DNA of 64,000 nt from Dehalococcoidia bacterium (GCA_965197585.1 OZ240215.1:1344001-1408000), one strand, 5' to 3'. Counted from the first letter of the stretch, positions 7,922 to 33,467 are shown. The notes: generated by a model not told the origin, from the sequence alone. Numbers and translations: made by a program.

Positions 7922-9304
7922 ATGAAGATACTCAGTAACAATTTGGGCAAGGGTTTGACCCTGCGCAAGGGCTTTATGGCCCTCTTCGCAGTCCTGGCCC
8001 TTGCCCTACTTATCGCTGCAGCTTGCGGAGAGGCCGCAACGGCAACGCCGGAAGCAATGCCGGATGAACCCACGGCTATGGCGGATGAGCCCACGGCCAT
8101 GGCAGATGAACCTACCGCCATGGCAGATGAGCCCACAGCCATGGCAGATGAACCTACCGCTATGCCTGTGCCCACTGCCATGACGGAAGCTGGCATGAGG
8201 CTGAGGTCCGAGTGGACCGTCGACAACCCCGCCACCCGTGAAGAGATCGAAGCTGAGCTCCAAAAGTACCGCGGCCAGAGCCTCGTGTTCGCCTCCTGGG
8301 GCGGCGCCTACCAGGCAGCCCAGCGTCAGGCATATGCCGTACCCTTTGCCGAGCAGTTCGGCATTGACATCATCGACGACTCCCAGCCCACCCTCGGTAA
8401 CGTCCGAGCCAGGTCCCAGTCCGGCAACGTCACCTGGCACCTGTTCGACACCGGCACCGGCTCCATCTACCAGTTGTCCAACACAGGCGACCTGGAAGAG
8501 CTGGACTTTAGCATTATCGACAACCGGGACTTCCTGGAAGTCGTAAAGTCCCCCTACATCGGTGGCGGCGGCATCACCTGGTCAGAGGTCTGGGCCTACA
8601 ACACCGACATATTCCCCGAAGATAATCAGCCTCACACAATGGTCGACATTTACGACACCGAGAAGTTCCCCGGCCGTCGCGCGTGGGCCTACTACCCGGA
8701 CCACGAGTTGGTCTTCTTCCTCTTGTCCAAGAACCCGGAACTCCTTGACACTGCCGAAGGCCGCGCCAGCCTCTCCGCCCTCACGGACGAGCAGGTTGAT
8801 CGAGCCTTCGAACTGGCCGAAGAGTACAAAGACCAGGTCGATTGGTTCTGGCAGACGGGCTCCGACTGCCCACAGAACCTGGTTAGCGGCGAAATGGACC
8901 TCTGCACCGCCTGGAACGGCCGCATCTTCGATGCTGCCAAGGAAGGCGAATCCATAAGAGTGTGCTGGGAGTGCGGCCACGTCCTAAACACCGGCGTCTT
9001 CGGCATAATCAGCGGACTTAAGGAGCAGGATCCGGAGGCCTTCGAACTGGCCCATCTCTACATGGCTTGGACCTCCTTCCCCGAAATCAACGCCCGGATG
9101 TCCCAGTTCATCACTTACGGACCTGTTAACACCAAGTCCCTGCCTTTCCTCAGCGAACCCGAGTACGATGCAGTGAGGGACGAGCTTCCTTCCTCCATCA
9201 CCAACGTTCCCTACGCCATCTTCAAAGACGAAGTCCACGTAGGTGAGCGCGCCGACATCTGGCGCGAGCGCTGGATTGAGTTCCAGCAGACTTTTGAGAA
9301 CTAG
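7922..9304 (+). CDS. ABC transporter extracellular solute-binding lipoprotein, PotD-like (paralog 1)
   Basis: Lipobox IAAA-C, SWGGAYQ, KFPGRR, AWNGRI, YGPVN. Confidence 0.9.
   Translation: MKILSNNLGKGLTLRKGFMALFAVLALALLIAAACGEAATATPEAMPDEPTAMADEPTAMADEPTAMADEPTAMADEPTAMPVPTAMTEAGMRLRSEWTVDNPATREEIEAELQKYRGQSLVFASWGGAYQAAQRQAYAVPFAEQFGIDIIDDSQPTLGNVRARSQSGNVTWHLFDTGTGSIYQLSNTGDLEELDFSIIDNRDFLEVVKSPYIGGGGITWSEVWAYNTDIFPEDNQPHTMVDIYDTEKFPGRRAWAYYPDHELVFFLLSKNPELLDTAEGRASLSALTDEQVDRAFELAEEYKDQVDWFWQTGSDCPQNLVSGEMDLCTAWNGRIFDAAKEGESIRVCWECGHVLNTGVFGIISGLKEQDPEAFELAHLYMAWTSFPEINARMSQFITYGPVNTKSLPFLSEPEYDAVRDELPSSITNVPYAIFKDEVHVGERADIWRERWIEFQQTFEN
8063..8167 (+). repeat. Five tandem 21-bp coding repeats (DEPTAMA)
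   Basis: Direct tandem repeat in the N-terminal linker of SBP1. Confidence 0.9.
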
Positions 9305-20060: not shown

Positions 20061-20750
20061 CTATCCTTTTAGGGTCCACCATCGCACCGGCCAATCCCTG
20101 GCACGGGCCAGCTTCTCCAATCTACGTTCCGGGTTTACCGCTATCGGATGCCCCACCATCTCCAGGAGCGGCAGGTCCGAAATGTCGTCCGCGTAGGCGT
20201 AGGAATCCGATAATGCCACCCCACATTTCTCCGCCCAGTTCTTTGCAGCCTCCGCTTTCCCGGCTCCACTCAGAGGTCCAAACTCCAATTCCCCCGTGAA
20301 TCGTTCCCCGTCCACCTTACCCCGGGACGCCATTACCTCGTCGACCCCCAGCAAGTCCCCCAGAGGCCTGACCATCTCCATTAGCCCGCCAGTAAGGAGC
20401 ACCACCTTGTGACCATCAGTCCTGTGTCGTTCCACCTCATCCCTCGCCTCCCTGAAGAGACGCCCGCCCCAGTAATCTGCGCCTCTCCTCTTAGCCCAGC
20501 CTACCAAGTCCCCCACCGCCGACCCGCGGTAGTTCTTAAAGAATCCCCTGATGAATTTCACCCTGTCAGTCCAGTCCGTCAGGGCGTAAAGGGGAATTCT
20601 GGGAGCAAAAGCCGCTAACCAGAGGCCTCGGCTCAATAAACCCTTACCTTCCAGAGCATAGTCCAGGTAAACGTCCAGCAGGTTTGAAGAGGCGATGGTC
20701 CTGTCCACATCAAAGAACGCTGCAACTCTGGCATTAGGCCTTCCCATCAA
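20061..20750 (-). CDS. HAD-IB family hydrolase/phosphatase
   Basis: FFDVDRTI motif I, AYADDISDLPLL motif IV. Confidence 0.9.
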   Translation of the reverse strand: MMGRPNARVAAFFDVDRTIASSNLLDVYLDYALEGKGLLSRGLWLAAFAPRIPLYALTDWTDRVKFIRGFFKNYRGSAVGDLVGWAKRRGADYWGGRLFREARDEVERHRTDGHKVVLLTGGLMEMVRPLGDLLGVDEVMASRGKVDGERFTGELEFGPLSGAGKAEAAKNWAEKCGVALSDSYAYADDISDLPLLEMVGHPIAVNPERRLEKLARARDWPVRWWTLKG

Positions 20751-23040
20751 GCGCCTCGACTGCCGCCTGAACTTCCCCGGTCACCTCGCGGCTCAACTCA
20801 CTCAAACCCTTGGCGTCAGCTCCATCGGACCTGCCCGCGAAGCAGATAGGCTCCCCAAAACGTATGGAGACTGGATGCCGCTTCACTCTTACCGTACCTT
20901 TAGGCATCGCTTTATGTGAGTCCTTGATAAACGCGGGTACGACGGGGGCCTCCGACATGAGGGCAAGGAACCCTATGCCGTTCTTGAAGGGCTGCATCCT
21001 TCCCGGACGACCCCTGCTCCCTTCCGGGTAGAAAACCAGTGCGTGCCCCTTTTCCAGCACCGCCAACGCCAACCCGAGCTCCTCTCGGGACGTCCCCTTC
21101 CTATCGAAAGGGATCGCCGTGAACAGTCCCCTCACCATTCGAGACATGAACCCGTTTTCGAAGAAGTAGTCCTTTGCCGCCACGGGGTGGACTTTCTCAC
21201 CTCTCCGCCCGAGAGCGTGAAATATCACCGGCGTGTCCATGTGGCTATTGTGGTTCGAAGCAATGATATAAGGCCCGGAGTCTGGAATATTCTCAAGTCC
21301 CTCACACCGGAAACCCGTCCACCACCTGATCGCCGATCTCATAAGAAAGAACAGAGCTTGCCCCCAACACCTGATCCACAGTGGGACCTTGAACCACCGC
21401 TCGGCCTCTACTCCGAATCCGGCATCGGAAACGCGGGCGCCGTTCCCCTTGGGCTCAGGGTCCATGCCGAGCAGGTACTTCTTCACACCCGGAATATGCA
21501 CATCCTGAAGGTAGGACTCCCAGTCCAGCTTACCGATATCGAAGTCAAAATTCTCCTTATCACTCTCGTGAAGCGCACCCATCACACTGCGGGTGTTGTC
21601 GGTGAGAAACTTGCAGTCTGCCTCGGCATACGGTCCGTACAACCTGCCGTACTGGTACAGCCTTTCTAGTGACACCATCTTCAATTTCAATCTGTTATGA
21701 AAGCGTCGGGTCCAAGGTGTGAAGGAAAGAGGCGCGGTAGCTGTGATGGCGGCTCGTAGGGGAAGCATGTAGCGCAGGCGGATGTGGCGAAGGAATTTGG
21801 GAGTAGTAGGAAAGGTAGGTTTGGTGAGCTTCCTTGCTTTCCCCCCCTCGTCCCCCGACACCGGGAAAGGGGCCCTCTGGAAATGCGCATCAACCTGGTC
21901 GGCGAACCCATCTAGCGTTATCGGATTCTCCATCCCTGAGGCAATCTGGTACACCTTTGGAGAGTCATTTACCGAGGCCTGCGCGACGATGGCCAATATC
22001 GCGTTAGCCACCATGTCAACGGGGATGATGTCCAGAATTCCGTCTCGTTTGCCCGGGAAATCGATCATGCGGCCCCGTCCGTAAGCCACTATCAGCGGGT
22101 CGAGCATCCGAAAACCGTTCAGCCAGCCCGGTACAGGCGCTTTCCAGGCCCCTTCTATTATGGCCGGCCTGATAATCGCCCCTTTCATCCCTCCAATGCT
22201 CCGCACAAACATCTGCTCGCCCATCGCTTTGGAGAAGGTGTACACGTCCTGCCAGCCGCGCCTGTGAGCCCATTCCATGCCAATCTTGCTCAGCTGCTTG
22301 TCCAGCCGCTCAGACTCGGCACGGCTAACCTGCTCCTTTGCTCCCCTCACCGACCCCGCCTTAGCCAGAATCGCCTCGATCTCCTTTTCCACATCGTAGT
22401 CTGTCTGGGGAATGCCGTTGATGTGCCCGACAGTACGGTTCGGGTCAGGCAGCTCCTCCGTAACAGGCCCTTTGCGAGTAGCATTCACATAGCAGGTAGA
22501 AACTTGGGCAAAAAACGGGTCCTTACATCCCTTTGCGAACTCAACCATTCGGCCAGGGCCCAATGTGTTCAATCTCACTGCCGTATCCAAAGGCGCATCG
22601 AAGGAGACGACCGCGGCGCAATGAATGATTATGTCGACTTCGCTTTGTAAACGTTCGTAAATTGCCGGGTCCAGGCCCAGGCCATCCATCGCCACGTCCC
22701 CTGAGACGGCATGGACCTTGCTATCGAAGAGGCTGTCGAAAGCATCTCCCATCCTGTCTTTCAACGGCTCGAAGATCTGGGATTCGAAGACTTCCTGCTT
22801 GAGTCTCTCGTCTATGGATATAGCTGTGGCCCCGGCCCGTGTCCTGGGTCTGACAAGAACGTAGACAGCCGCGATATCAGAAAGAAGGCTGAGCATTCTC
22901 TCCAGGAGCACCTTGCCCAGTAGGCCGGTGCCCCCTGTGAGGAGCACAGTCTTTCCTCTGTAGAAATCTCGAAGTGGTTGCAAGGAAGCCTGCTGGATAT
23001 CGTCTAGGTAGGGTGCAGGATTAGGTAAGGTCACGTACAT
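20734..23040 (-). CDS. Fatty acyl-CoA reductase (male-sterility type) fused to PlsC-type acyltransferase
   Basis: N-terminal TGGTGLLGK, YTFSKA, IRPAII, DIIPVD; C-terminal NHNSHMD (HxxxxD) and FYPEGSR. Confidence 0.88.
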   Translation of the reverse strand: MYVTLPNPAPYLDDIQQASLQPLRDFYRGKTVLLTGGTGLLGKVLLERMLSLLSDIAAVYVLVRPRTRAGATAISIDERLKQEVFESQIFEPLKDRMGDAFDSLFDSKVHAVSGDVAMDGLGLDPAIYERLQSEVDIIIHCAAVVSFDAPLDTAVRLNTLGPGRMVEFAKGCKDPFFAQVSTCYVNATRKGPVTEELPDPNRTVGHINGIPQTDYDVEKEIEAILAKAGSVRGAKEQVSRAESERLDKQLSKIGMEWAHRRGWQDVYTFSKAMGEQMFVRSIGGMKGAIIRPAIIEGAWKAPVPGWLNGFRMLDPLIVAYGRGRMIDFPGKRDGILDIIPVDMVANAILAIVAQASVNDSPKVYQIASGMENPITLDGFADQVDAHFQRAPFPVSGDEGGKARKLTKPTFPTTPKFLRHIRLRYMLPLRAAITATAPLSFTPWTRRFHNRLKLKMVSLERLYQYGRLYGPYAEADCKFLTDNTRSVMGALHESDKENFDFDIGKLDWESYLQDVHIPGVKKYLLGMDPEPKGNGARVSDAGFGVEAERWFKVPLWIRCWGQALFFLMRSAIRWWTGFRCEGLENIPDSGPYIIASNHNSHMDTPVIFHALGRRGEKVHPVAAKDYFFENGFMSRMVRGLFTAIPFDRKGTSREELGLALAVLEKGHALVFYPEGSRGRPGRMQPFKNGIGFLALMSEAPVVPAFIKDSHKAMPKGTVRVKRHPVSIRFGEPICFAGRSDGADAKGLSELSREVTGEVQAAVEALDGKA

Positions 23041-24804: not shown

Positions 24805-25527
24805 CTAGTCCCTGGACACAAACCCTAGCAGGCTTAGGATGATCATGAATATGTTCAGAAAGTTCACGTACAACCCGATGCTTCCCATCACCGCAACTTG
24901 AGTCGCCGCCTCGTAGTTGCCCTGCTCCGCGGCCTGCAGGGCCAATACCTTCATCTGCTTCGTCTGCCACACCGTCAGCGCCAGAAACAACGGCAGCAAA
25001 ACAATATTTATCAGCAAGAACAGCATGCTGGATTGAAGAAGGAAGACGTTGACGAGGCTGATGACTATCAAACCGACTATGCCGATAATCAGCATCGGGC
25101 CCCATCTCGAAATATCCCTCTTGGTGATCATGCCGATTGCGCTCATGCCCACGAACAACCCAGCGGTCAGCAGGAACGCAACTGCGATGGTCTCGGTCGT
25201 GTATCGGGACACGATCCAGGAGAGGAACAACCCTTCCATGGCCGTAAAGGCAAGGTAGACCGCAGTGGCGGGTCCGGTGCGCCCCTTCATAGCCAGCCCA
25301 TTGGCAGCCATCAACATCCCAAATATCAACCCGAACCCCACCAAGAAACCCAACCACCCGATATTCAGAATGACGTCGCCGAGGCCTATCCTGTCCCCGA
25401 CCCATATGCCTGCGCCGGTGGTAATGATTCCCAAGGCCACAAGCCCGTACATCCGGGCCATGGCCCCTGTATAAATCTCGTTGGCTCGTTCCCTGCCGAA
25501 GCCGATGCTGTATTGGTCCCTGAGCAT
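24805..25527 (-). CDS. Bax inhibitor-1/YccA family membrane protein
   Basis: About 7 TM segments; C-terminal LYVNFLNIFMIILSL; start uncertain (25527 or 25578). Confidence 0.88.
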   Translation of the reverse strand: MLRDQYSIGFGRERANEIYTGAMARMYGLVALGIITTGAGIWVGDRIGLGDVILNIGWLGFLVGFGLIFGMLMAANGLAMKGRTGPATAVYLAFTAMEGLFLSWIVSRYTTETIAVAFLLTAGLFVGMSAIGMITKRDISRWGPMLIIGIVGLIVISLVNVFLLQSSMLFLLINIVLLPLFLALTVWQTKQMKVLALQAAEQGNYEAATQVAVMGSIGLYVNFLNIFMIILSLLGFVSRD

Positions 25528-25660
25528 GGGTCTCAAACTCCCTTCATCGGTACATACGGTCACCGCCAAATTATACATCGCGGGGTTTGCCCATTAGTGA
25601 TAGGTCAGAGGACAAGCGCCGATAAGGTGCAATTAAGGATTCGCCCAAGGCATGCAATGC

Positions 25661-26419
25661 CTAAGGGCCAGGCGAGCGAGTTGGGCTGTCCTGCGTAGGA
25701 CGGGGATGACTGCGTATCTCCGCCATCAGGAACGCCAAACTCCCGCGCCACAAGTTCACCTGTTCTTCGCCCCAATCGGGGTCGTAGTCCGGGAACTTGG
25801 CCAGAAGCTTCGTCATCATGTCAGAGGTGTGGGGTGGTTCCACGTGTCCCCCAACGGGCTCCAAGACTCGCACTTCGGGAGCTGGGGCTGGAGGAGCGCT
25901 CGAGGGCACTGCCCTCTTCCTAGGCCCCCGCGTCCCGGACTGCCTATCCCGCGGCGTCTTGAAATGCGGCGAAAGCTGTATCTCAGCGTCTTTGGCTATG
26001 CGAAGAAAGAAAGTCATGCCCTTTCGCCCTACTTCGTCCTGTGATCCGCCTGTCTTGAATTTCTCAGCCAGGTGATCGGGAGTTGCAGACCTGAGCATAA
26101 GTCCGTCCAGCACCGGCACGTACGCCCTTTCCACTACCTTATATAGCAGCCCCTTTGCCTCATCCTCCCCCGAAGACAGCAAGCTCTTGAGCGCATCCGT
26201 TGGGTGTCTTTGTGAATCCACCAACCCGAGAAAGGCCAAAGCCGATTGCAAATTCGACTCGGCCGAAGCGTTGACCTTCAGTTTCTTGAGGTAACTGTTG
26301 TCTATCCGGCTCGGCAAGTGTTGATTGGCAAAGTCCTCCCTCAACGTTTCCAATAGTCGTTGCCATTGGGAGTAAGGGGGATACGGTGGTCGCCTTTTGC
26401 CATTTTCTGACCCTGCCAT
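25661..26419 (-). CDS. DUF5343-like protein (putative DNA-binding)
   Basis: PPY...PSRIDNSYL...ALAFLGLVD...PT...AY...FFLRIAKDAEI pattern recalled for DUF5343. Confidence 0.7.
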   Translation of the reverse strand: MAGSENGKRRPPYPPYSQWQRLLETLREDFANQHLPSRIDNSYLKKLKVNASAESNLQSALAFLGLVDSQRHPTDALKSLLSSGEDEAKGLLYKVVERAYVPVLDGLMLRSATPDHLAEKFKTGGSQDEVGRKGMTFFLRIAKDAEIQLSPHFKTPRDRQSGTRGPRKRAVPSSAPPAPAPEVRVLEPVGGHVEPPHTSDMMTKLLAKFPDYDPDWGEEQVNLWRGSLAFLMAEIRSHPRPTQDSPTRSPGP

Positions 26420-26487
26420 GCCGTTTGTCCTTTGTCCGGCTTGTCTGGCACTCGTCCGTTGTGGCTATGATACCAGCCAAAAACGGT

Positions 26488-26677
26488 TAAGGCAATATAT
26501 GCCATCCCCGACAACTAAGGCAAAAGACAGTGGCATATTGGCCTTACAGCATTCTGGTTTTGCCTTAGTTTCACAGATGCTTTTTCCACGGCTAGAATGG
26601 CCTCATATTGCCTGAATTGCACCCGAGGCCGGGACATACACCGACCTTACGAGGCAAAGCCCACAAGGCAATATGCC
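26488..26677. repeat. Array of about 7 AGGCAA(TATG)-type motifs in both orientations
   Basis: Copies at 26488, 26513, 26532(rc), 26558(rc), 26604(rc), 26651, 26664; includes a perfect 13-bp inverted repeat aactaaggcaaaa/ttttgccttagtt. Confidence 0.75.
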
Positions 26678-26747
26678 GCCCGGCGGCAAGCGCTATCTCT
26701 TCCGGGATAGCGACCCGGACCGCAGTTCGAAAGGAGGGTTGAATAAA

Positions 26748-27875
26748 ATGGTCGTAGAGCAGTTGTTAACTAGTAGACCGATTTCCAGATTATCGGTCGA
26801 GAGGGCCCCGGCCCGGATTAAGGTGGTCGGCGTCGGAGGAGGCGGTTGTAACTGCGTCCGACGCATGCTGGCCCACAACGTCCCTGGCGTCGAGTTCGTC
26901 GTCGTAAACACCGATATCAAGTCACTGGAATCAGTGACCCACGGCGCCACCGTCCTCCAGATTGGTGAGAACATCACCCACGGATGGGGCGCGGGCGGAG
27001 AGTTCGACATCGGCGAGAAAGCTGCGGAAGAGTCTTCCACTCTTATAAAGAAGGCGCTCAAGAACGCCGAGCTCGTCTTCCTCACCGCCGGCATGGGCGG
27101 TGGAACCGGCACCGGCGCCGCACCCTACGTGGCCGAGCTGGCCAAGCAGATGGGCGCCCTTGTTGTCGGAGTTGTCACAACTCCCTTCAGCTTTGAAGGG
27201 ACCCGCAGGCTCAGCCAGGCCATCGCCGGCGTCGCCCGGCTCCGCCGCCACGTGGACAACCTCATCGTCATCCACAATGACCGGCTCCTCCAGTTTGTGG
27301 ACCACGATGCCGGGATGACCGAGGCCTTCCAGACCGCGGACGAGGTGGTCAGCCAGGGCATCGTCAGTGTCTCCGAGCTCATCAATGTCCCCGGTGAGAT
27401 CAACGTAGACTTCGCCGACGTCCAGACCATTATGTCCAGCCCCGGTGGCGCTCTCATGGCCATGGGACTGGGACGAGGCAGCATGGGCGCACTGGAGGCC
27501 GCCAGACAGGCAGTGACCAACCCCCTCCTCAACCTCTCCATCAGAGGCGCCAAGGGAGTCCTCTTCTCCGTCAAGGGCGGCGATGAATTGACCCTCGGCG
27601 GCGTCAACGCCGCCGGTGAGCTGATCAACAGCGCCGTCGACAAGAACGCCAGCATCTTCTTCGGAATGTCCATCGATCCTTCGCTCGGCGACATGGTGAA
27701 GCTCACCCTAATCGCCACCGGCCTGAAGCAGGACAAGGGCTTTAACTCCTTCACCGGGAAGTTCAAGGGACTGTTCCCCGGATTTGAGATGAAGGTGAAG
27801 GCCCCTGGCATCATGGGCCGGGGTAAGAAGAGGAAGAAGCGGTCCTCACAGTACGAATGGGACGACGACTTTTAG
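26748..27875 (+). CDS. ftsZ: FtsZ paralog (tubulin-like GTPase) with atypical C-terminus
   Basis: GVGGGGCN, GMGGGTGTG, T7 loop INVDFADV; AAGGAGG RBS. Confidence 0.93.
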   Translation: MVVEQLLTSRPISRLSVERAPARIKVVGVGGGGCNCVRRMLAHNVPGVEFVVVNTDIKSLESVTHGATVLQIGENITHGWGAGGEFDIGEKAAEESSTLIKKALKNAELVFLTAGMGGGTGTGAAPYVAELAKQMGALVVGVVTTPFSFEGTRRLSQAIAGVARLRRHVDNLIVIHNDRLLQFVDHDAGMTEAFQTADEVVSQGIVSVSELINVPGEINVDFADVQTIMSSPGGALMAMGLGRGSMGALEAARQAVTNPLLNLSIRGAKGVLFSVKGGDELTLGGVNAAGELINSAVDKNASIFFGMSIDPSLGDMVKLTLIATGLKQDKGFNSFTGKFKGLFPGFEMKVKAPGIMGRGKKRKKRSSQYEWDDDF

Positions 27876-27889
27876 GTAACCCAGGACTC

Positions 27890-27930
27890 GGGGCACGGGA
27901 GGCGACCCTCAACTCCACCTCTCGTGCCCC
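27890..27930 (+). terminator. Hairpin downstream of ftsZ
   Basis: ggggcacgggagg/cctctcgtgcccc stem; no U-tract. Confidence 0.45.
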
Positions 27931-28031
27931 CATCCTTGCCGCATCCTGAAATCGAGCCCGTCATCGGATACCGGATGCAACGATAGAGTAGGCCGAGAAA
28001 CCCGAAACTGAGAATTTGGCAGGTAGAAACC

Positions 28032-28787
28032 GTGGCTTTACAACAGACTCTCCCAACCCCTCAAATCCAGCTGGATCCGGTGGCAAAGATAGCTTTCGAA
28101 CGGCCTGCTTTGGCCCTCTGCTATCCCTCCCTGAAGCATGCCTCCCCGGCAGCCGAGTTGACTGCGAGATCAGAAAAGGACGCTGGCAGAAAAGGGGCCA
28201 ATCACCCCACCGTCACTCTTCTCCTTTCCAGCTTAATTGAGTTGGAGCGTAGGGACATGATTGCCATCGGGGCCTCTACATTTAGAGCCAACCGAGGAGA
28301 GGCAGGCGGCATCTGGGTTACCAAGAAGGTGCCCAATTGCCCCGGCAACGGAATGTCTTCGGACCTCTTCCACTGCATCACCCACGGTTACTCCTCCCTC
28401 AAAGATGTTCTCGCCCGCTACTTCCGAGACTCCTTCCGCCAGGACCCCTGGACCCTTGCCTCTACCCTAGGCATGCAGGAGGCAAAAGCCTACGGGTACC
28501 TGACCTCCCAGCAATGGCCCGCCAGTGGCATCAAGGGTTTCCTGAGCCGCATCGGCCTTTCCAATGACATCCAGACTCTATGGGTCAGGGACGGGCTGAA
28601 AGTTAGGGAAGCTACCCAGGCCTCGCGGCTCCTCAGAATTCATATAGACGAGTTTCGCACACGCTCCCGAGACTTATACGAAGGGATGCGCGTTGGCATA
28701 GCCGAGTCTATTAACAAGATGGATGAGCACCTGACCCCGCGGGTCATCAGCCTGCCAAAGCTCAAAAAGAGGTTTGCCGCAAGTTGA
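28032..28787 (+). CDS. Hypothetical protein
   Basis: 251-aa ORF with GTG start, followed by a terminator-like hairpin. Confidence 0.6.
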   Translation: MALQQTLPTPQIQLDPVAKIAFERPALALCYPSLKHASPAAELTARSEKDAGRKGANHPTVTLLLSSLIELERRDMIAIGASTFRANRGEAGGIWVTKKVPNCPGNGMSSDLFHCITHGYSSLKDVLARYFRDSFRQDPWTLASTLGMQEAKAYGYLTSQQWPASGIKGFLSRIGLSNDIQTLWVRDGLKVREATQASRLLRIHIDEFRTRSRDLYEGMRVGIAESINKMDEHLTPRVISLPKLKKRFAAS

Positions 28788-28835
28788 CCATATTTGACAA
28801 CTAACTCTCTTTCTATACCCTCCTCCCCCTTATAC

Positions 28836-28873
28836 AAAGGGCCCGACCTCCGCCAGTCGGGCTCTTTGTCTTT
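28836..28873 (+). terminator. Intrinsic terminator
   Basis: aaagggcccgac/gtcgggctcttt stem with T-rich tail. Confidence 0.65.
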
Positions 28874-29022
28874 ATCCTCGATGCCCTCCCACGACATCAA
28901 ACGTCAACTCCATGGAAGCACCCAGAGGGTTGCTCTGTTGCCATGACAAAGCAGAACGCCGGTGTGATCCACCGGCGCTCTGCTTACTTATTCAGTTATG
29001 GGGAGCGTGGATATCTGGGAGT

Positions 29023-29894: not shown

Positions 29895-30455
29895 ATGCCC
29901 ACCACGATCAAAATACTCGTACCGATTGTAGGTCTTGGTGTTGGAGTCATCCTCGTCTTGACGGCGGTATTTTTGACGAAAGCCGTATTCTCCGAACCGT
30001 TCCAGGTATTTGGCATGGGCGCCGCTCCCGAGCAGCCCATCAACTTTCCCCACGACGTACATGTCGAAAAAGTCGGCATCGAGTGCATGTTCTGTCACCG
30101 CACCGTCGATTCCAGCGGACCCGCCGGCATACCCCCCGTTGAGCAATGTCTCTTCTGCCACAAGGATTTGGGCGATGAGCAATTCATCCTTTCCGGGAGC
30201 GAGGAACTGGAACTCCTCAGGTCTCACTTCGATAACGGAGACCCGATTCAGTGGAAACGAGTCCACCGCCTCCCCGACCACGTTCAGTTCCTCCATGAAG
30301 CCCACATAGGCGCCGGCATTAACTGCTCCACGTGCCACGGTGACGTGGGCGGCATGCAGGTGGTAGAGCAGGTCCGAGACTTGAAGATGGGAGACTGCGT
30401 TGACTGTCACCGGGAGAATAACGCCCCTACCGATTGTCTAACGTGTCACTATTAG
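29895..30455 (+). CDS. actA: Pentaheme cytochrome c, ACIII subunit ActA (QrcA-like)
   Basis: N-terminal TM; five CxxCH (CMFCH, CLFCH, CSTCH, CVDCH, CLTCH); QPINFPH. Confidence 0.9.
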   Translation: MPTTIKILVPIVGLGVGVILVLTAVFLTKAVFSEPFQVFGMGAAPEQPINFPHDVHVEKVGIECMFCHRTVDSSGPAGIPPVEQCLFCHKDLGDEQFILSGSEELELLRSHFDNGDPIQWKRVHRLPDHVQFLHEAHIGAGINCSTCHGDVGGMQVVEQVRDLKMGDCVDCHRENNAPTDCLTCHY

Positions 30456-30489
30456 ACTTGGGAAGTGCACCTAAAGCGGTAAATTAAAA

Positions 30490-32739
30490 TTGCCAGTTAG
30501 CCGAAGACAATTTCTAAAGATCGCCGGTATCTCGTCATTGGGCGCGGTCATATTTAAGGCCTGTGGTTTCGATGCGGAAGAGAACCTCGTCGAGAGCCCG
30601 GTAAACCTCCCCGAAGACCTGGTCACCGGGACCGATAACTGGTATGCCAGCACGTGCCGGCAGTGCCCCGCAGGCTGCGGCAACATCGTTCGGGTTATGG
30701 AAGGCCGAGCCAAGAAGATCGAGGGTAACCCCAACCATCCCCTAAGCCGAGGCAAGCTCTGCGTAAGAGGCCAGGCTGGAGTCCAGGCCCTTTATCACCC
30801 CGACAGGATAGCCGGGCCTATGCGCCGCTCCGGTCCCCGAGGCTCCGGCCAATATGAACGTATATCTTGGAATGACGCCGAGGCAGAAATAGTCCCACGC
30901 CTCCAAAATGCCCAGGCCGACCGGGTGCTCCTGGCCACCGAGCCCCTCAGGGGTAGACTGGCAATGGTCACCAAACGGTTTGTCGAAGCCCTTGGCATCC
31001 GACATCACTCATTTGAAACCCTGGAGCGCTCCACTAACCTGAAAGCGGCAATGCGGCAGGTCTTCGGTGTGGAGCAGTTGCCGGAATTCGACCTCGAAAA
31101 CACGAGCTTCCTCCTCGGTTTCGGCGCAGACTTACTCGAGACTTGGCTTTCCACAGTCCGGTACAACCGCGGTTACGGCCATTTGCGACAGGGCGACCAC
31201 CGAGAGCGCGGGACATTCGTACATGTCGACAGCCGATTCTCCATGACCGCCGCCAACGCCGACAAGTGGGTACCCGTCAAACCCGGCATGGAGGGCATAT
31301 TAGCCCTCGGCTTAGCCTACGTAATTATCAGAGAAGAGCTCGGCGACAAGGCCGCAGCCGATGCCATGACCGGAGGCCGGGGCTTCGAAGCGCTCGCCCC
31401 CTTCGCCCCCAACCTAACCGCCGAAATGACAGGGGTGTCGGAGAACGAGGCCATTTCTCTAGCCCGACGTTTCGCCGAAGAGCAGCCGAGTCTCGCCATC
31501 GGAGGCGGCTCCGCCGGCGCACACACCAACGGTGTCTACAACCTGGCGGCTATATATTCTCTCAACGTGCTCGTAGGAAACCTGGGAGTGGATGGCGGCC
31601 TTCACTTCAATCCCTCGCCATTGTCTCCGGGCGCTGGCAGCTCTATTCCCGACTCCACGTTCAAGGACTGGCAGGATATCGCCAGCGACATGGGGAATGT
31701 GGAACTCCTTATGGTTAGGAACGTGGACCCCGTTCACGGCCTGCCGGAGGACCTGGGATTCCAGGAAGCCATTGGTAAGGTGCCCTACGTCGTTAGTTTC
31801 TCCAGCTTCATGGACGACACCACGTCCCAAGCCGATCTCATCCTGCCCGACAGCACTTATCTCGAAGCTTGGGGCGACGACGTTCCAGACCCGGGCCCCG
31901 GCTACGAAATGGTCACCTTCCAGCAGCCCGTGGTAGCTCCGTTCCAGGACACCCGGTCTTTCGGGGATGCTTTAATCGGCATCTCCAGCCGTCTTGGAGG
32001 CTCGGTTGCCTCCGCTCTGCCTTGGACAAGTTTCAAGGATGTAGTACAGGAAAGCGCCCGAGAGCTATTCGCTCTCAACCGCGGCAACCTTACCCTTGAG
32101 GGCAGCTTCGAGGCATTTTGGAACGGGCTGCTGCAGCGGGGCGTTTGGTATGACCAGAATTCCAGGCCCAGTTCGAAGGCTGATCCCCAGCCCCTCCCCA
32201 CGGAAGTTAATGCTCCCGTATTTCAAAATGCCCCCCACGAAGAGGGCATGAATCTCATCGTCTACCAGACCAACTCCATGCTGGACGGTAAACTCGCCCA
32301 CCTGCCGTGGCTTCAGGCTACACCTGACCCCATAACCACCGTGGTCTGGGATACATGGGTAGACCTCAGCCGCGAAGACGCACGAAGGATGGAAGTGAAG
32401 TCGAACGACATCGTAGAGGTCAGGTCCCAGTACGGTGCAATCGAAGCCCCGGTTTATGTAAACAGAGGGACGCCCCCAGGCACGGTATGCATCCCCGTTT
32501 CTCAGGGCCACTCGGCCTTCGGGCGCTACGCCGAGAACCGGGGCACTAACGTTATGTCGATTCTTGCCCCTCTCACCGACCCCAACACCGGGGCCCTTGC
32601 CTACAACGCTACCAGGGTCAAAGTCACCAAGACCGACCGGCAGAGGACTTTGCCCAAGTTCGAAGGCGTAGTCGAAGCATTGCCCGCCGTAACCACCGAG
32701 CTCATTCAGATTGCTAACGGAAAGGACGGCTCCCACTAG
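30490..32739 (+). CDS. actB: Molybdopterin-oxidoreductase-like subunit ActB1/QrcB
   Basis: Tat SRRQFLK; CRQCPAGC...C FS0 motif; KIEGNPNHP; DPITTVVWD. Confidence 0.85.
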   Translation: MPVSRRQFLKIAGISSLGAVIFKACGFDAEENLVESPVNLPEDLVTGTDNWYASTCRQCPAGCGNIVRVMEGRAKKIEGNPNHPLSRGKLCVRGQAGVQALYHPDRIAGPMRRSGPRGSGQYERISWNDAEAEIVPRLQNAQADRVLLATEPLRGRLAMVTKRFVEALGIRHHSFETLERSTNLKAAMRQVFGVEQLPEFDLENTSFLLGFGADLLETWLSTVRYNRGYGHLRQGDHRERGTFVHVDSRFSMTAANADKWVPVKPGMEGILALGLAYVIIREELGDKAAADAMTGGRGFEALAPFAPNLTAEMTGVSENEAISLARRFAEEQPSLAIGGGSAGAHTNGVYNLAAIYSLNVLVGNLGVDGGLHFNPSPLSPGAGSSIPDSTFKDWQDIASDMGNVELLMVRNVDPVHGLPEDLGFQEAIGKVPYVVSFSSFMDDTTSQADLILPDSTYLEAWGDDVPDPGPGYEMVTFQQPVVAPFQDTRSFGDALIGISSRLGGSVASALPWTSFKDVVQESARELFALNRGNLTLEGSFEAFWNGLLQRGVWYDQNSRPSSKADPQPLPTEVNAPVFQNAPHEEGMNLIVYQTNSMLDGKLAHLPWLQATPDPITTVVWDTWVDLSREDARRMEVKSNDIVEVRSQYGAIEAPVYVNRGTPPGTVCIPVSQGHSAFGRYAENRGTNVMSILAPLTDPNTGALAYNATRVKVTKTDRQRTLPKFEGVVEALPAVTTELIQIANGKDGSH

Positions 32740-32759
32740 CCGTACCCAGGAGGTAATCC

Positions 32760-33467
32760 TTGGCAGACCAAAACAAATTCAAATGGGGTATGGTGATCGA
32801 CGTCGACCGGTGTACCGGTTGTGAGGCATGCGTAGTAGCTTGCCAGGCCGAGAACAATATCCCCCTGAATGAAGAGGACAGGTTCCACCAGGGACGCGCC
32901 ATAGAATGGATCCGGATCGAGCGCTACTGGGAGGGTGAATACCCGAACGTGAAGGCCAAGTTCCTTCCCGTCCTTTGCCAGCACTGTGACAACGCCCCCT
33001 GCGAGCCCGTCTGTCCTGTGTATGCCACCTACCACAACGACCAGGGCATGAATGTCCAGGTCTACAACAGGTGTGTAGGCACCCGATACTGTGCAAACAA
33101 CGATCCCTACCAGGTGCGGTTTTTCAACTTTTGGGAGCCCGAGTGGCCCGAGTCCCTGGAAAATCAGCTAAACCCGGACGTTACCGTCCGCACTCGAGGG
33201 CTGATGGAGAAGTGCTCCTTCTGTATCCAGCGTATCCGGCGCACGGAACGCGACCTCAAAAACGACGGCCGAGATCTCAGGGACGGCGAATTGCAGCCTG
33301 CCTGCGCTCAGACCTGCCCCACAGACGCATTGGTATTCGGAAACATGAAAGACCCGGAAAGCCGTGTCTCTAAGCTCGCCAAGAGCGACAGACACTACAA
33401 ACTGCTCGAAAACCTGGGCACGGAGCCCAACGTGATTTATCTGAAGAAAGTGGAGCGTGATGTCTAA
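32760..33467 (+). CDS. 4Fe-4S dicluster subunit ActB2/QrcC
   Basis: CTGCEACVVAC, CQHCDNAPCEPVCP, RCVGTRYC, MEKCSFC, CAQTCP. Confidence 0.92.
   Translation: MADQNKFKWGMVIDVDRCTGCEACVVACQAENNIPLNEEDRFHQGRAIEWIRIERYWEGEYPNVKAKFLPVLCQHCDNAPCEPVCPVYATYHNDQGMNVQVYNRCVGTRYCANNDPYQVRFFNFWEPEWPESLENQLNPDVTVRTRGLMEKCSFCIQRIRRTERDLKNDGRDLRDGELQPACAQTCPTDALVFGNMKDPESRVSKLAKSDRHYKLLENLGTEPNVIYLKKVERDV

Follow-up and report, generated by a model that had tools for sequence, protein, structure and literature searches.

A second ftsZ gene of an uncultured Dehalococcoidia bacterium, here called ftsZ2, stands head-to-head with a gene for a DUF5343-like protein and is followed by a gene for a 251-aa protein. 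The locus lies in a 64-kb stretch of DNA (GCA_965197585.1, OZ240215.1:1344001-1408000; the window, whose positions are used below unless a contig is named) from a single-contig genome, G000, of 3.43 Mb that is 92% complete by marker genes. Comparison across the class revealed the same divergent arrangement, with members of one monophyletic DUF5343 subfamily facing an ftsZ operon, in six or more Dehalococcoidia families. FtsZ2 belongs with the true FtsZs and not with TubZ, and sequence comparison places it in a distinct clade that is better conserved than FtsZ1, the product of the other ftsZ gene. With a probability of about one half, we read the locus as an FtsA-independent ftsZ2 operon with the DUF5343-like protein as a repeat-binding regulator. 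Families are labelled f1, for that of the source organism, and f6, f29, f47, f48, f63 and f68, for others.

DUF5343-like genes are paired with ftsZ across the class

All 12 genomes of f1 (four genera, the source genome included) carry an FtsZ2 orthologue together with an FtsZ1-type copy, and in all 12 the DUF5343-like gene is divergent upstream and the 251-aa gene downstream of ftsZ2. An earlier prediction made from the window alone (the original prediction) had proposed following the synteny of these genes through the class. The three-gene arrangement was found in none of eight loci from other families; the head-to-head pairing of DUF5343 and ftsZ recurs in five further Dehalococcoidia families. 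The same prediction had placed ftsZ2 outside any division and cell wall (dcw) gene context, which holds within the window but misses that the locus appears to be the local form of a class-wide division locus.

Among 301 genomes sampled from the class, 101 contain DUF5343, and 90 of these lie outside f1. FtsZ_C was detected in 288 of the 301, a tally that includes one genome flagged as unpublished (G243) and on which no other claim rests. Outside f1, DUF5343 and ftsZ lie head-to-head on one contig, within ~3.5 kb, in 22 of the 90 DUF5343-positive genomes; this count compares the contig coordinates of DUF5343 and FtsZ_C, with fragmented genomes such as G188 left unjudged. The linkage holds for every DUF5343-positive genome of f47 (9/9), f6 (2/2) and f63 (1/1), for nine of ten in f48 and for one of six in f68. 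The operon facing the DUF5343 gene is ftsA-ftsZ followed by a ~110-aa open reading frame (ORF) in f47 and f63, rsmH-ftsA-ftsZ in f6, ftsA-ftsZ in f68, and a row of three tandem ftsZ genes in f48. A scan with one genome per species returned 26 relatives of the window's DUF5343-like protein, 23 of which have ftsZ directly divergent. The candidate is also present in closed f47 genomes of 1.4-2.1 Mb.

The DUF5343-like protein belongs to a divergent, monophyletic DUF5343 subfamily. In a tree of DUF5343 proteins, the 16 ftsZ-linked members occupy one side of a branch (SH-aLRT 99) and 28 unlinked members the other; the unlinked set consists of the 28 best-scoring loci and is not random, and L042, with a 600-aa frame, and L050, truncated at the end of its contig, were left out. 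A C-terminal motif, K(F/L)PxFDPxW, is present in 14 of the 16 linked proteins and in one of the 28 unlinked ones. The Pfam DUF5343 match is weaker in the ftsZ-linked genes, and almost every strong match is unlinked.

Three further observations concern these loci. The best Pfam DUF5343 matches (L024-L053) are not beside ftsZ and lack KFPxFDPxW, and a weak PADLOC match to PDC-M34A suggests that some unlinked members may be defence-linked. In the f48 loci (L057-L060, L090-L102), the DUF5343-like gene is followed by three tandem FtsZ2-clade ftsZ genes, the second and third of which are separated by a 70-aa membrane-like ORF. In f47 and f63 (L054, L055, L063, L068, L069), the ORF that follows the DUF5343-linked ftsA-ftsZ is conserved, encodes ~108-126 aa and has no Pfam family.

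FtsZ2 groups in a distinct clade of FtsZ proteins

We corrected the start of ftsZ2 from the mechanical ORF start at 26673 to the ATG at 26748. A strong ribosome-binding site, AAAGGAGGG (26730-26738), precedes this ATG, and the resulting N-terminus, MVVE(Q/H), is that of FtsZ2 in 12 of 12 orthologues. From this start, FtsZ2 has 375 aa and the spacer to the DUF5343-like gene measures 328 bp.

FtsZ2 contains the GTPase domain PF00091 with GGGTGTG, the FtsZ_C domain PF12327 and the T7 loop NVDFAD (NxDxxD). It passes the NCBI FtsZ equivalog model TIGR00065 with 358.5 bits against a cut-off of 295.2, as does FtsZ1. The two proteins are 50% identical, and GGGTGTG and the T7 loop are kept in both. The original prediction had taken ftsZ2 for an orphan paralog with the canonical ftsZ elsewhere in the genome, and ftsZ1 (373 aa) was indeed located at G000:C1:903.7 kb, directly after mraZ-rsmH and followed by nrdR and a ribonucleotide reductase gene.

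The C-terminal peptide of FtsZ, of the PxFLRR type, binds FtsA, ZipA or SepF. This canonical peptide is absent from FtsZ2 and its clade. It is present in single-copy FtsZs of other families, in f6 and f29, and in FtsZ1 of G010, the one f1 genome that still has ftsA. FtsZ2 has a conserved N-terminal peptide, MVVEQLLTSRPISRLSV, and the tail FKGLFPGFEMKVKAPGIMGRGKKRKKRSSQYEWDDDF; the basic C-terminal tail described earlier was recovered as ...KKRKKRSSQYEWDDDF. Both tails of the genome, RFGGLFKRG in FtsZ1 and GKFKGLFPGF in FtsZ2, resemble the C-terminus of the FtsA of relatives, GKLFGLFKKK. A hydrophobic-moment (amphipathicity) scan did not separate FtsZ2-clade tails from canonical tails or from FtsA controls.

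A phylogenetic tree of 42 FtsZ rows, calculated without L068, which nearly duplicates L054, and without the first FtsZ of L059, which is truncated, joined f1 FtsZ2, a third copy from G011 and all three f48 paralogs in one clade (SH-aLRT 100, branch length 1.0). FtsZ1, both f47/f63 copies and the single-copy FtsZs all fall outside this clade. A tree that forces all f1 FtsZs together was rejected (p-AU 0.0002), for a clade that was named after the tree had been seen. Over the same genome pairs, FtsZ2 is 90, 77 and 81% identical and FtsZ1 79, 53 and 53%. FtsZ2 orthologues are 78-100% identical across f1, and their neighbors are less well kept (DUF5343-like protein, 35-94%; 251-aa protein, 36-96%). 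The third G011 copy (L075, G011:C1:269.9 kb) is more divergent, with 353 aa and 61% identity, and stands without a DUF5343-like or 251-aa gene next to it.

No FtsA, SepF or FtsW/RodA was detected in the single-contig genome, and tblastn with the FtsA proteins of five relatives gave no match in it. FtsA was likewise not found in four of the five other f1 genomes examined, nor in any of five f48 genomes. Seven f48 genomes that were read contain no FtsZ outside the FtsZ2 clade. Thus, FtsZ2-clade proteins can be the sole FtsZ complement of a lineage.

MraZ and DUF5343-like genes head different ftsZ operons

In genomes with two ftsZ loci (f1, f47, f63 and two f29 genomes that were read), the locus without DUF5343 has the order mraZ-rsmH-(ftsA)-ftsZ-nrdR, and MraZ was confirmed there in all five genomes tested. 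In f6 (0/5) and f48 (0/5), which have no ftsZ locus besides the DUF5343-linked one, searches for MraZ were negative in genomes that are 92-100% complete. This distribution suggests that a single small gene of DNA-binding type, MraZ or DUF5343-like, stands at the head of every ftsZ operon. For f48, the lack of both FtsA and MraZ in the five genomes further suggests that the ftsZ triple is its whole FtsZ complement.

The likeness between the two proteins is functional only: the DUF5343-like protein has no match to MraZ (PF02381), and the MraZ of the genome sits at the other locus. What they share is that the gene of a small DNA-binding protein heads a division operon with short promoter repeats. 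The DUF5343-like protein differs in belonging to an unrelated family with another predicted fold (PF17278, winged helices), in being encoded divergently and not co-directionally, in a different repeat word of mixed orientation, and in an extra conserved C-terminal domain. The order mraZ-rsmH-ftsA-ftsZ in Dehalococcoidales is given in the accessible part of PMC10608941.

Two individual loci bear on this comparison. In L061 and L062, both of f6, the DUF5343-like gene is head-to-head with rsmH-ftsA-ftsZ, the only ftsZ locus, in the usual position of mraZ. Upstream of the genome's own mraZ (L003, ~8160-8200), TTGACA-17-TAGAAT is followed by GTGGGGAC-N2-GTGGGGAC-N2-GTGGGC, which we take to be the classical layout of an MraZ-box operator. 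MraZ boxes have been described in E. coli and in Mollicutes. The spacer repeats of DUF5343-linked loci differ from the GTGGGGAC repeats upstream of mraZ.

The divergent control region holds a unique repeat cluster

The original prediction had described ftsZ as divergent from a DUF5343-like gene across about 330 bp filled with AGGCAA motifs; the spacer was confirmed at 328 bp, and its cluster is the only one of its kind in the genome. Six exact copies of AGGCAA/TTGCCT lie within 182 bp (26490-26671), out of 34 in the window. The window-wide count is not enriched (34 against a shuffle mean of 29), so that the signal lies in the clustering. The GGCAA core occurs seven times in the spacer where 0.94 are expected (Poisson 5.6e-5), and among 1650 genomic AGGCAA sites the ftsZ2 spacer is the sole 200-bp stretch with at least four.

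The sites (numbered 1 to 7 in Table 1) are of mixed orientation and include a perfect 13-nt inverted repeat. An alignment of nine genomes from the genus shows intact cores in all nine for sites 2, 4, 5 and 7, in eight for site 1, in five for site 6 and in four for site 3, with flanks that drift. Sites 1-4 fill the 75 bp between the -35 hexamers of the two divergent promoter candidates, and site 1 is itself one of those hexamers.

Repeats also occur in the spacers of other DUF5343-linked loci. GGACA(A) is present in 3-9 copies in f47-g82, f63, f6 and other f1 genera, with the final copy at a fixed distance before TTGA. The observed and expected numbers of GGACA are 6 and 0.56 in L055, 5 and 0.63 in L067, 9 and 2.26 in L062, and 5 and 0.89 in L069.

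The ftsZ2 leader can fold. A 10-bp stem between the regions of site 5 (26604-26613) and site 7 (26666-26675) is kept in eight of eight sequences; since it never changes on both sides, it neither backs nor contradicts pairing. In the downstream leader hairpin, pairs 116-127 and 117-126 have changed on both sides in three and two of the eight sequences, respectively. The folding z-score of the leader is -1.75, and 10 of 200 shuffles fold equally well. No Rfam family was found in 25500-29000 at E <= 1.

The DUF5343-like protein has a predicted tandem winged-helix domain

The DUF5343-like protein is predicted to consist of a tandem winged helix (residues 8-155), a disordered basic linker (158-198) and a conserved helical hairpin with the KFPxFDPxW motif (198-240). 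Its AlphaFold model has a pLDDT of 76 overall and above 90 in the N-domain, and is confident for residues 10-155 and moderate for 198-240. We searched for structural relatives of the N-domain with VIA-align. The highest match was the FokI recognition domain (Z 7.3, rmsd 3.3, 145 residues), followed by an uncharacterized protein (5.9), BrxA (5.8), SspB (5.6), N.BspD6I (5.4) and BpuJI (5.2). Many winged helix-turn-helix (wHTH) regulators score at Z ~4, TubR among them (Z 4.4 and 4.2). The matches are throughout winged-helix modules that bind DNA, and the best of them recognize specific sequences. Foldseek against the Protein Data Bank (PDB) returned nothing at E <= 0.001, with BrxA third at a probability of 0.85. 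The winged-helix fold that the original prediction had raised as a question is what the N-domain models as, at modest scores. As the tool warns that scores in this range may be common, we treat DNA binding as a reasoned expectation and not as a result.

BrxA and the recognition domains of FokI, N.BspD6I and BpuJI are the best N-domain matches (Z 5.2-7.3 over 137-148 residues) and share tandem-winged-helix DNA recognition; the DUF5343-like protein differs from them in having no sequence relation, no nuclease or defence partner and another C-terminal part. Prediction of a complex between FtsZ2 (alignment A6) and the DUF5343-like protein (A1) scored 0.00 in two runs, a 'no answer' that speaks neither for nor against binding.

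The 251-aa partner is restricted to f1

The gene that follows ftsZ2 encodes, as noted earlier, a protein of 251 aa without a family: Pfam, NCBIfam and PADLOC gave no match. An exhaustive profile search of 1.84 billion representatives returned six clusters, all of close relatives, and a word-indexed search returned 18 matches, all with at least 61% identity. The structural model has a pLDDT of 59, and the other four models ~40. VIA-align of the model revealed GOLPH3 (Z 7.0, 166 residues) and Vps74 (Z 5.1), the next row being at Z 3.0. Among language-model neighbors (Atlas), a GPP34 cluster ranks eighth with a score of 0.89. At the sequence level, none of 16 members of the 251-aa family matched GPP34 (PF05719) in Pfam at E <= 10, hhalign against the class's own GPP34 proteins gave a probability of 0.3%, and PDB sequences gave nothing below E 0.6.

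From the models, the partner is possibly GOLPH3/Vps74-like, a weak and distant lead at the level of the fold. GOLPH3 connects the membrane to the cytoskeleton. As the top two fold matches, GOLPH3 and Vps74 stand clear of the rest; the 251-aa protein has no sequence match to GPP34 and a low-confidence model, and a separate canonical GPP34 gene exists in the genome. This gene lies at G000:C1:2975097-2975690 (PF05719, E 7e-44). Of the 151 class genomes sampled, 40 have GPP34, in some as domains of ~690-aa proteins.

RNA-library contigs cover the locus

Contigs from four RNA-library runs (X1-X4) of two studies, some of them labelled sponge metagenome, match 25600-28900 at 90-100%; the X4 contigs come from a relative and are 90-96% alike. 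Transcript starts, strand and level are not readable from such contigs, which may contain DNA, and uncovered parts mean nothing. All three genes are represented in the contigs of the two studies, and two contigs run on from ftsZ2 into the 251-aa gene (27329-28252 and 27251-28829), the second stopping just short of the terminator-like hairpin at 28834-28869, and no terminator-like site was found between the two genes. These data are compatible with an operon of ftsZ2 and the 251-aa gene and are not proof of one. As weak hints, a contig of a relative starts at ~26622-26627, near the ftsZ2 promoter candidate, and another contig extends from within the DUF5343-like gene to 26450. The matches indicate that relatives of the organism were present, and probably active, in those samples.

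Features of the locus and neighboring genes

Table 1 Features of the ftsZ2 locus, in window coordinates
Feature	Position	Strand	Remarks
DUF5343-like gene (252 aa)	25661-26419	-	Pfam PF17278, E 9e-7, 29.7 bits vs cut-off 27
Divergent control region, DUF5343-like gene / ftsZ2	26420-26747	.	328 bp; aligned across 9 genus genomes
Promoter candidate of DUF5343-like gene, TTGCCT-17-(TG)TATCAT	26467-26495	-	sequence prediction
AGGCAA site 1, TTAAGGCAATAT	26490-26495	+	reads TTGCCT on -, the -35-like hexamer of the DUF5343 promoter candidate
AGGCAA site 2	26518-26523	+	left arm of 13-nt inverted repeat AACTAAGGCAAAA / TTTTGCCTTAGTT
Degenerate site 3 (TTGGCC)	26540-26545	-	exact in 4/5 closest relatives (given as TTTGCC)
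AGGCAA site 4	26560-26565	-	right arm of 13-nt inverted repeat; abuts -35 of ftsZ2 promoter candidate
ftsZ2 promoter candidate, TTCACA-17-TAGAAT (10/12)	26570-26598	+	TAGAAT kept in 9/9 genus genomes
AGGCAA site 5, CATATTGCCT	26608-26613	-	~+1 to +10 of ftsZ2 promoter candidate; can pair with site 7 in leader RNA
AGGCAA site 6	26652-26657	+	in leader
AGGCAA site 7, AAGGCAATATGCC	26666-26671	+	in leader
Leader hairpin	26690-26712	+	compensatory changes among relatives
ftsZ2 (375 aa)	26748-27875	+	Tubulin 4e-45, FtsZ_C 6e-25
251-aa partner gene	28032-28787	+	ORF; f1-restricted
Terminator-like hairpin 3' of 251-aa gene	28834-28869	+	sequence prediction

The gene adjoining the DUF5343-like gene on its far side encodes a BI-1 (Bax inhibitor) family membrane protein (24805-25578, - strand) and is a neighbor only within the genus (9 of 12 family loci). 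The genes at 29895-33467 encode, one after another, a 186-aa multihaem cytochrome c, a 749-aa molybdopterin oxidoreductase and a 235-aa 4Fe-4S protein, a row that resembles an alternative-complex-III or Psr-type module. A 768-aa fusion of a fatty-acyl reductase (NAD_binding_4 + Sterile) with an acyltransferase domain (20734-23040, - strand) may serve ether-lipid or wax synthesis.

Discussion

On the reading that we favor, the locus would represent, in this lineage, a second cell-division locus that extends through the class Dehalococcoidia. Its ftsZ2 product would be a polymerization-competent FtsZ of a distinct clade that functions without FtsA; an FtsA-binding peptide is missing from it, as is FtsA from the genome. 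FtsZ2 would be co-expressed with the f1-specific 251-aa partner, and together they probably make up the principal ring system of the lineage, or at any rate one that it cannot do without. The DUF5343-like protein is expected to bind the AGGCAA repeats, which coincide in part with the -35 regions of the two divergent promoter candidates and with the beginning of the putative ftsZ2 leader. Binding there would autoregulate the DUF5343-like gene and set transcription of the ftsZ2 operon, the role that MraZ has at mraZ-rsmH-ftsZ1. A second division or shape ring regulated by DUF5343 had been one of the options in the original prediction and comes close to this reading. Gene content, conservation, phylogeny, the single occurrence of the repeat cluster and the lack of FtsA and MraZ in the genomes concerned are observations; DNA binding, an operator role of the repeats, regulation of the operon and function without FtsA are deduced from comparison and structure prediction.

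Several points weigh against the reading. The evidence for DNA binding is indirect, the Z scores are under 8 and Foldseek gave nothing at E <= 0.001, and the conserved C-terminal hairpin is not explained by a plain repressor model. The repeat word is not universal: neither GGACA nor GGCAA is in excess in four f48 and both f47-g53 spacers, and the other repeated words in those spacers (such as ATTTCA, 11 copies in L057) were identified post hoc. P values for GGACA are optimistic because the word was chosen after the k-mer tables had been seen. Given the 10-bp RNA stem of sites 5 and 7 and the compensatory changes in the hairpin, conservation may be partly at the RNA level. The repeats could also be bound by another factor, and either FtsZ1 or FtsZ2 may form the division ring.

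The DUF5343-like protein may additionally, or instead, link FtsZ to DNA. As an adaptor, it would hold the repeat array with its N-domain and FtsZ2 (core, N-terminal peptide or tail) with its C-terminal hairpin, and so nucleate the ring, position it or block it with respect to a single site on the chromosome, in the manner of TubR/tubC, SlmA, Noc or MatP and outside those families. We regard this as possible but somewhat unlikely. The predicted architecture, in which a flexible basic linker connects a DNA-binding domain with a small, conserved C-domain, suits an adaptor more than a minimal repressor. The motif of the C-domain is specific for the subfamily linked to ftsZ, and FtsZ2 offers conserved N- and C-terminal peptides in want of a partner. 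A single, unique repeat cluster beside a cytoskeletal GTPase also resembles a centromere, and TubR is among the winged-helix matches. Dozens of generic wHTH regulators, however, match as well as TubR does, and the C-domain is conserved across families with completely different FtsZ tails. SlmA, Noc, MatP and RefZ are DNA-bound FtsZ regulators of the TetR, ParB or ribbon-helix-helix families that use many sites dispersed over a chromosome region. The DUF5343-like protein would share with them a functional tie between DNA binding and FtsZ, but has one site cluster and another predicted fold. The locus, at 1.37 Mb, is at neither the minimum (~2.65 Mb) nor the maximum (~1.06 Mb) of GC skew, with dnaA at 3.03 Mb, positions that are uninformative beyond the locus not being at a skew extreme.

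Control at the RNA level, or by another factor, would assign the conserved spacer elements differently. Here, the ftsZ2 leader fold (sites 5 and 7 with the downstream hairpins) would set translation or stability, or a different regulator would bind the repeats, and the DUF5343-like protein would be a division protein without a role at this DNA. The stem kept in all eight sequences, the covarying hairpin and a promoter candidate that places sites 5-7 within the transcript speak for it. Against it stand the ordinary folding z-score, a long stem that never varies on both sides and the lack of an Rfam match, and a simple hairpin leaves sites 1-4 unexplained, which lie upstream of the promoter candidate as interleaved inverted pairs. 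We consider this explanation unlikely.

A bolder combination is a minimal divisome wired to the chromosome, in which the DUF5343-like protein on the AGGCAA array would hold FtsZ2 through its C-terminal hairpin as a centromere-like nucleation or checkpoint site. The 251-aa GOLPH3-like protein, the FtsA-like tail of FtsZ2, or both would tie the filaments to the membrane, with need of neither FtsA nor a cell wall. We hold this to be quite unlikely; if true, the DUF5343 subfamily would be a new class-wide FtsZ-binding division protein of Dehalococcoidia.

That the DUF5343-like gene is instead of a defence type (BrxA-like) and its adjacency to ftsZ incidental is very improbable. PADLOC gives a weak match to PDC-M34A, a candidate defence protein (E 5.6e-5), and BrxA is among the best fold matches, but six families show the pairing, the ftsZ-linked proteins form a monophyletic group with a C-domain of their own, and no defence genes were seen beside the DUF5343-like gene in the loci that were read.

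TubZRC (type III) partition systems are plasmid- or phage-borne and stabilize their carrier; they combine a tubulin-superfamily GTPase with a basic tail, the small winged-helix protein TubR and an iterated-repeat centromere upstream of co-directional tubR-tubZ. The original prediction had proposed a chromosomal system of this type, and a basic-tailed tubulin-superfamily GTPase, a protein with predicted winged helices and repeats do lie side by side here. As to family membership, the proposal is contradicted by the FtsZ equivalog score (358 bits against 295), the FtsZ_C domain and a grouping inside FtsZ with the only FtsZs of f48. Divergent genes, mixed-orientation repeats, a 252-aa partner with two further regions, chromosomal, syntenic and vertical inheritance in 12 of 12 genomes, and ordinary rsmH-ftsA-ftsZ or ftsA-ftsZ operons headed elsewhere by the same DUF5343 subfamily also speak against it, and it is most improbable.

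Two published records come close to parts of the FtsA-independent operon that we favor. Mycoplasma FtsZs without the FtsA-binding peptide bind the membrane through an amphipathic helix of their own, according to the accessible part of 10.1101/2023.08.29.555414. That case is likewise a wall-less lineage with a distinct FtsZ group that lacks the C-terminal peptide and has conserved N- or C-terminal extensions. FtsZ2 differs in phylum, in its dedicated partner gene and in its DNA-binding-type neighbor. The Mycoplasma case is a precedent for self-anchoring, which FtsZ2 may share; the hydrophobic-moment scan did not distinguish the tails. In Dehalococcoides mccartyi 195, DET0342-0343 are ftsA-ftsZ, and DET0636 and DET0589 are called FtsZ (PMC5102406). 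More than one ftsZ locus is thus already on record in the class; the accessible part of that record is silent on a DUF5343-like neighbor, on the FtsZ2 clade and on FtsA-less lineages. Our literature search returned no publication on the pairing of DUF5343 with ftsZ and none on DUF5343; the supplementary trees of PMC9871819 and the gene tables of PMC10608941, which lay outside that search, might already show the FtsZ2 clade.

Dehalococcoidia are without peptidoglycan, as stated in the accessible part of PMC10608941. A wall-less lineage that also lacks FtsA, SepF and FtsW raises the question of how FtsZ is anchored and controlled. The locus offers concrete candidates: a peptide-less FtsZ clade, the only FtsZ type in f48 and the better-conserved copy in f1, with a dedicated 251-aa partner in the latter; and a monophyletic DUF5343 subfamily tied to ftsZ operons class-wide and complementary to MraZ in two families. 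The pairing provides a first functional context for DUF5343, an unstudied domain family. The closed f47 genomes are probably those of the cultivated organohalide respirers; if so, antibodies, proteomics and in vitro work on these proteins would be feasible.

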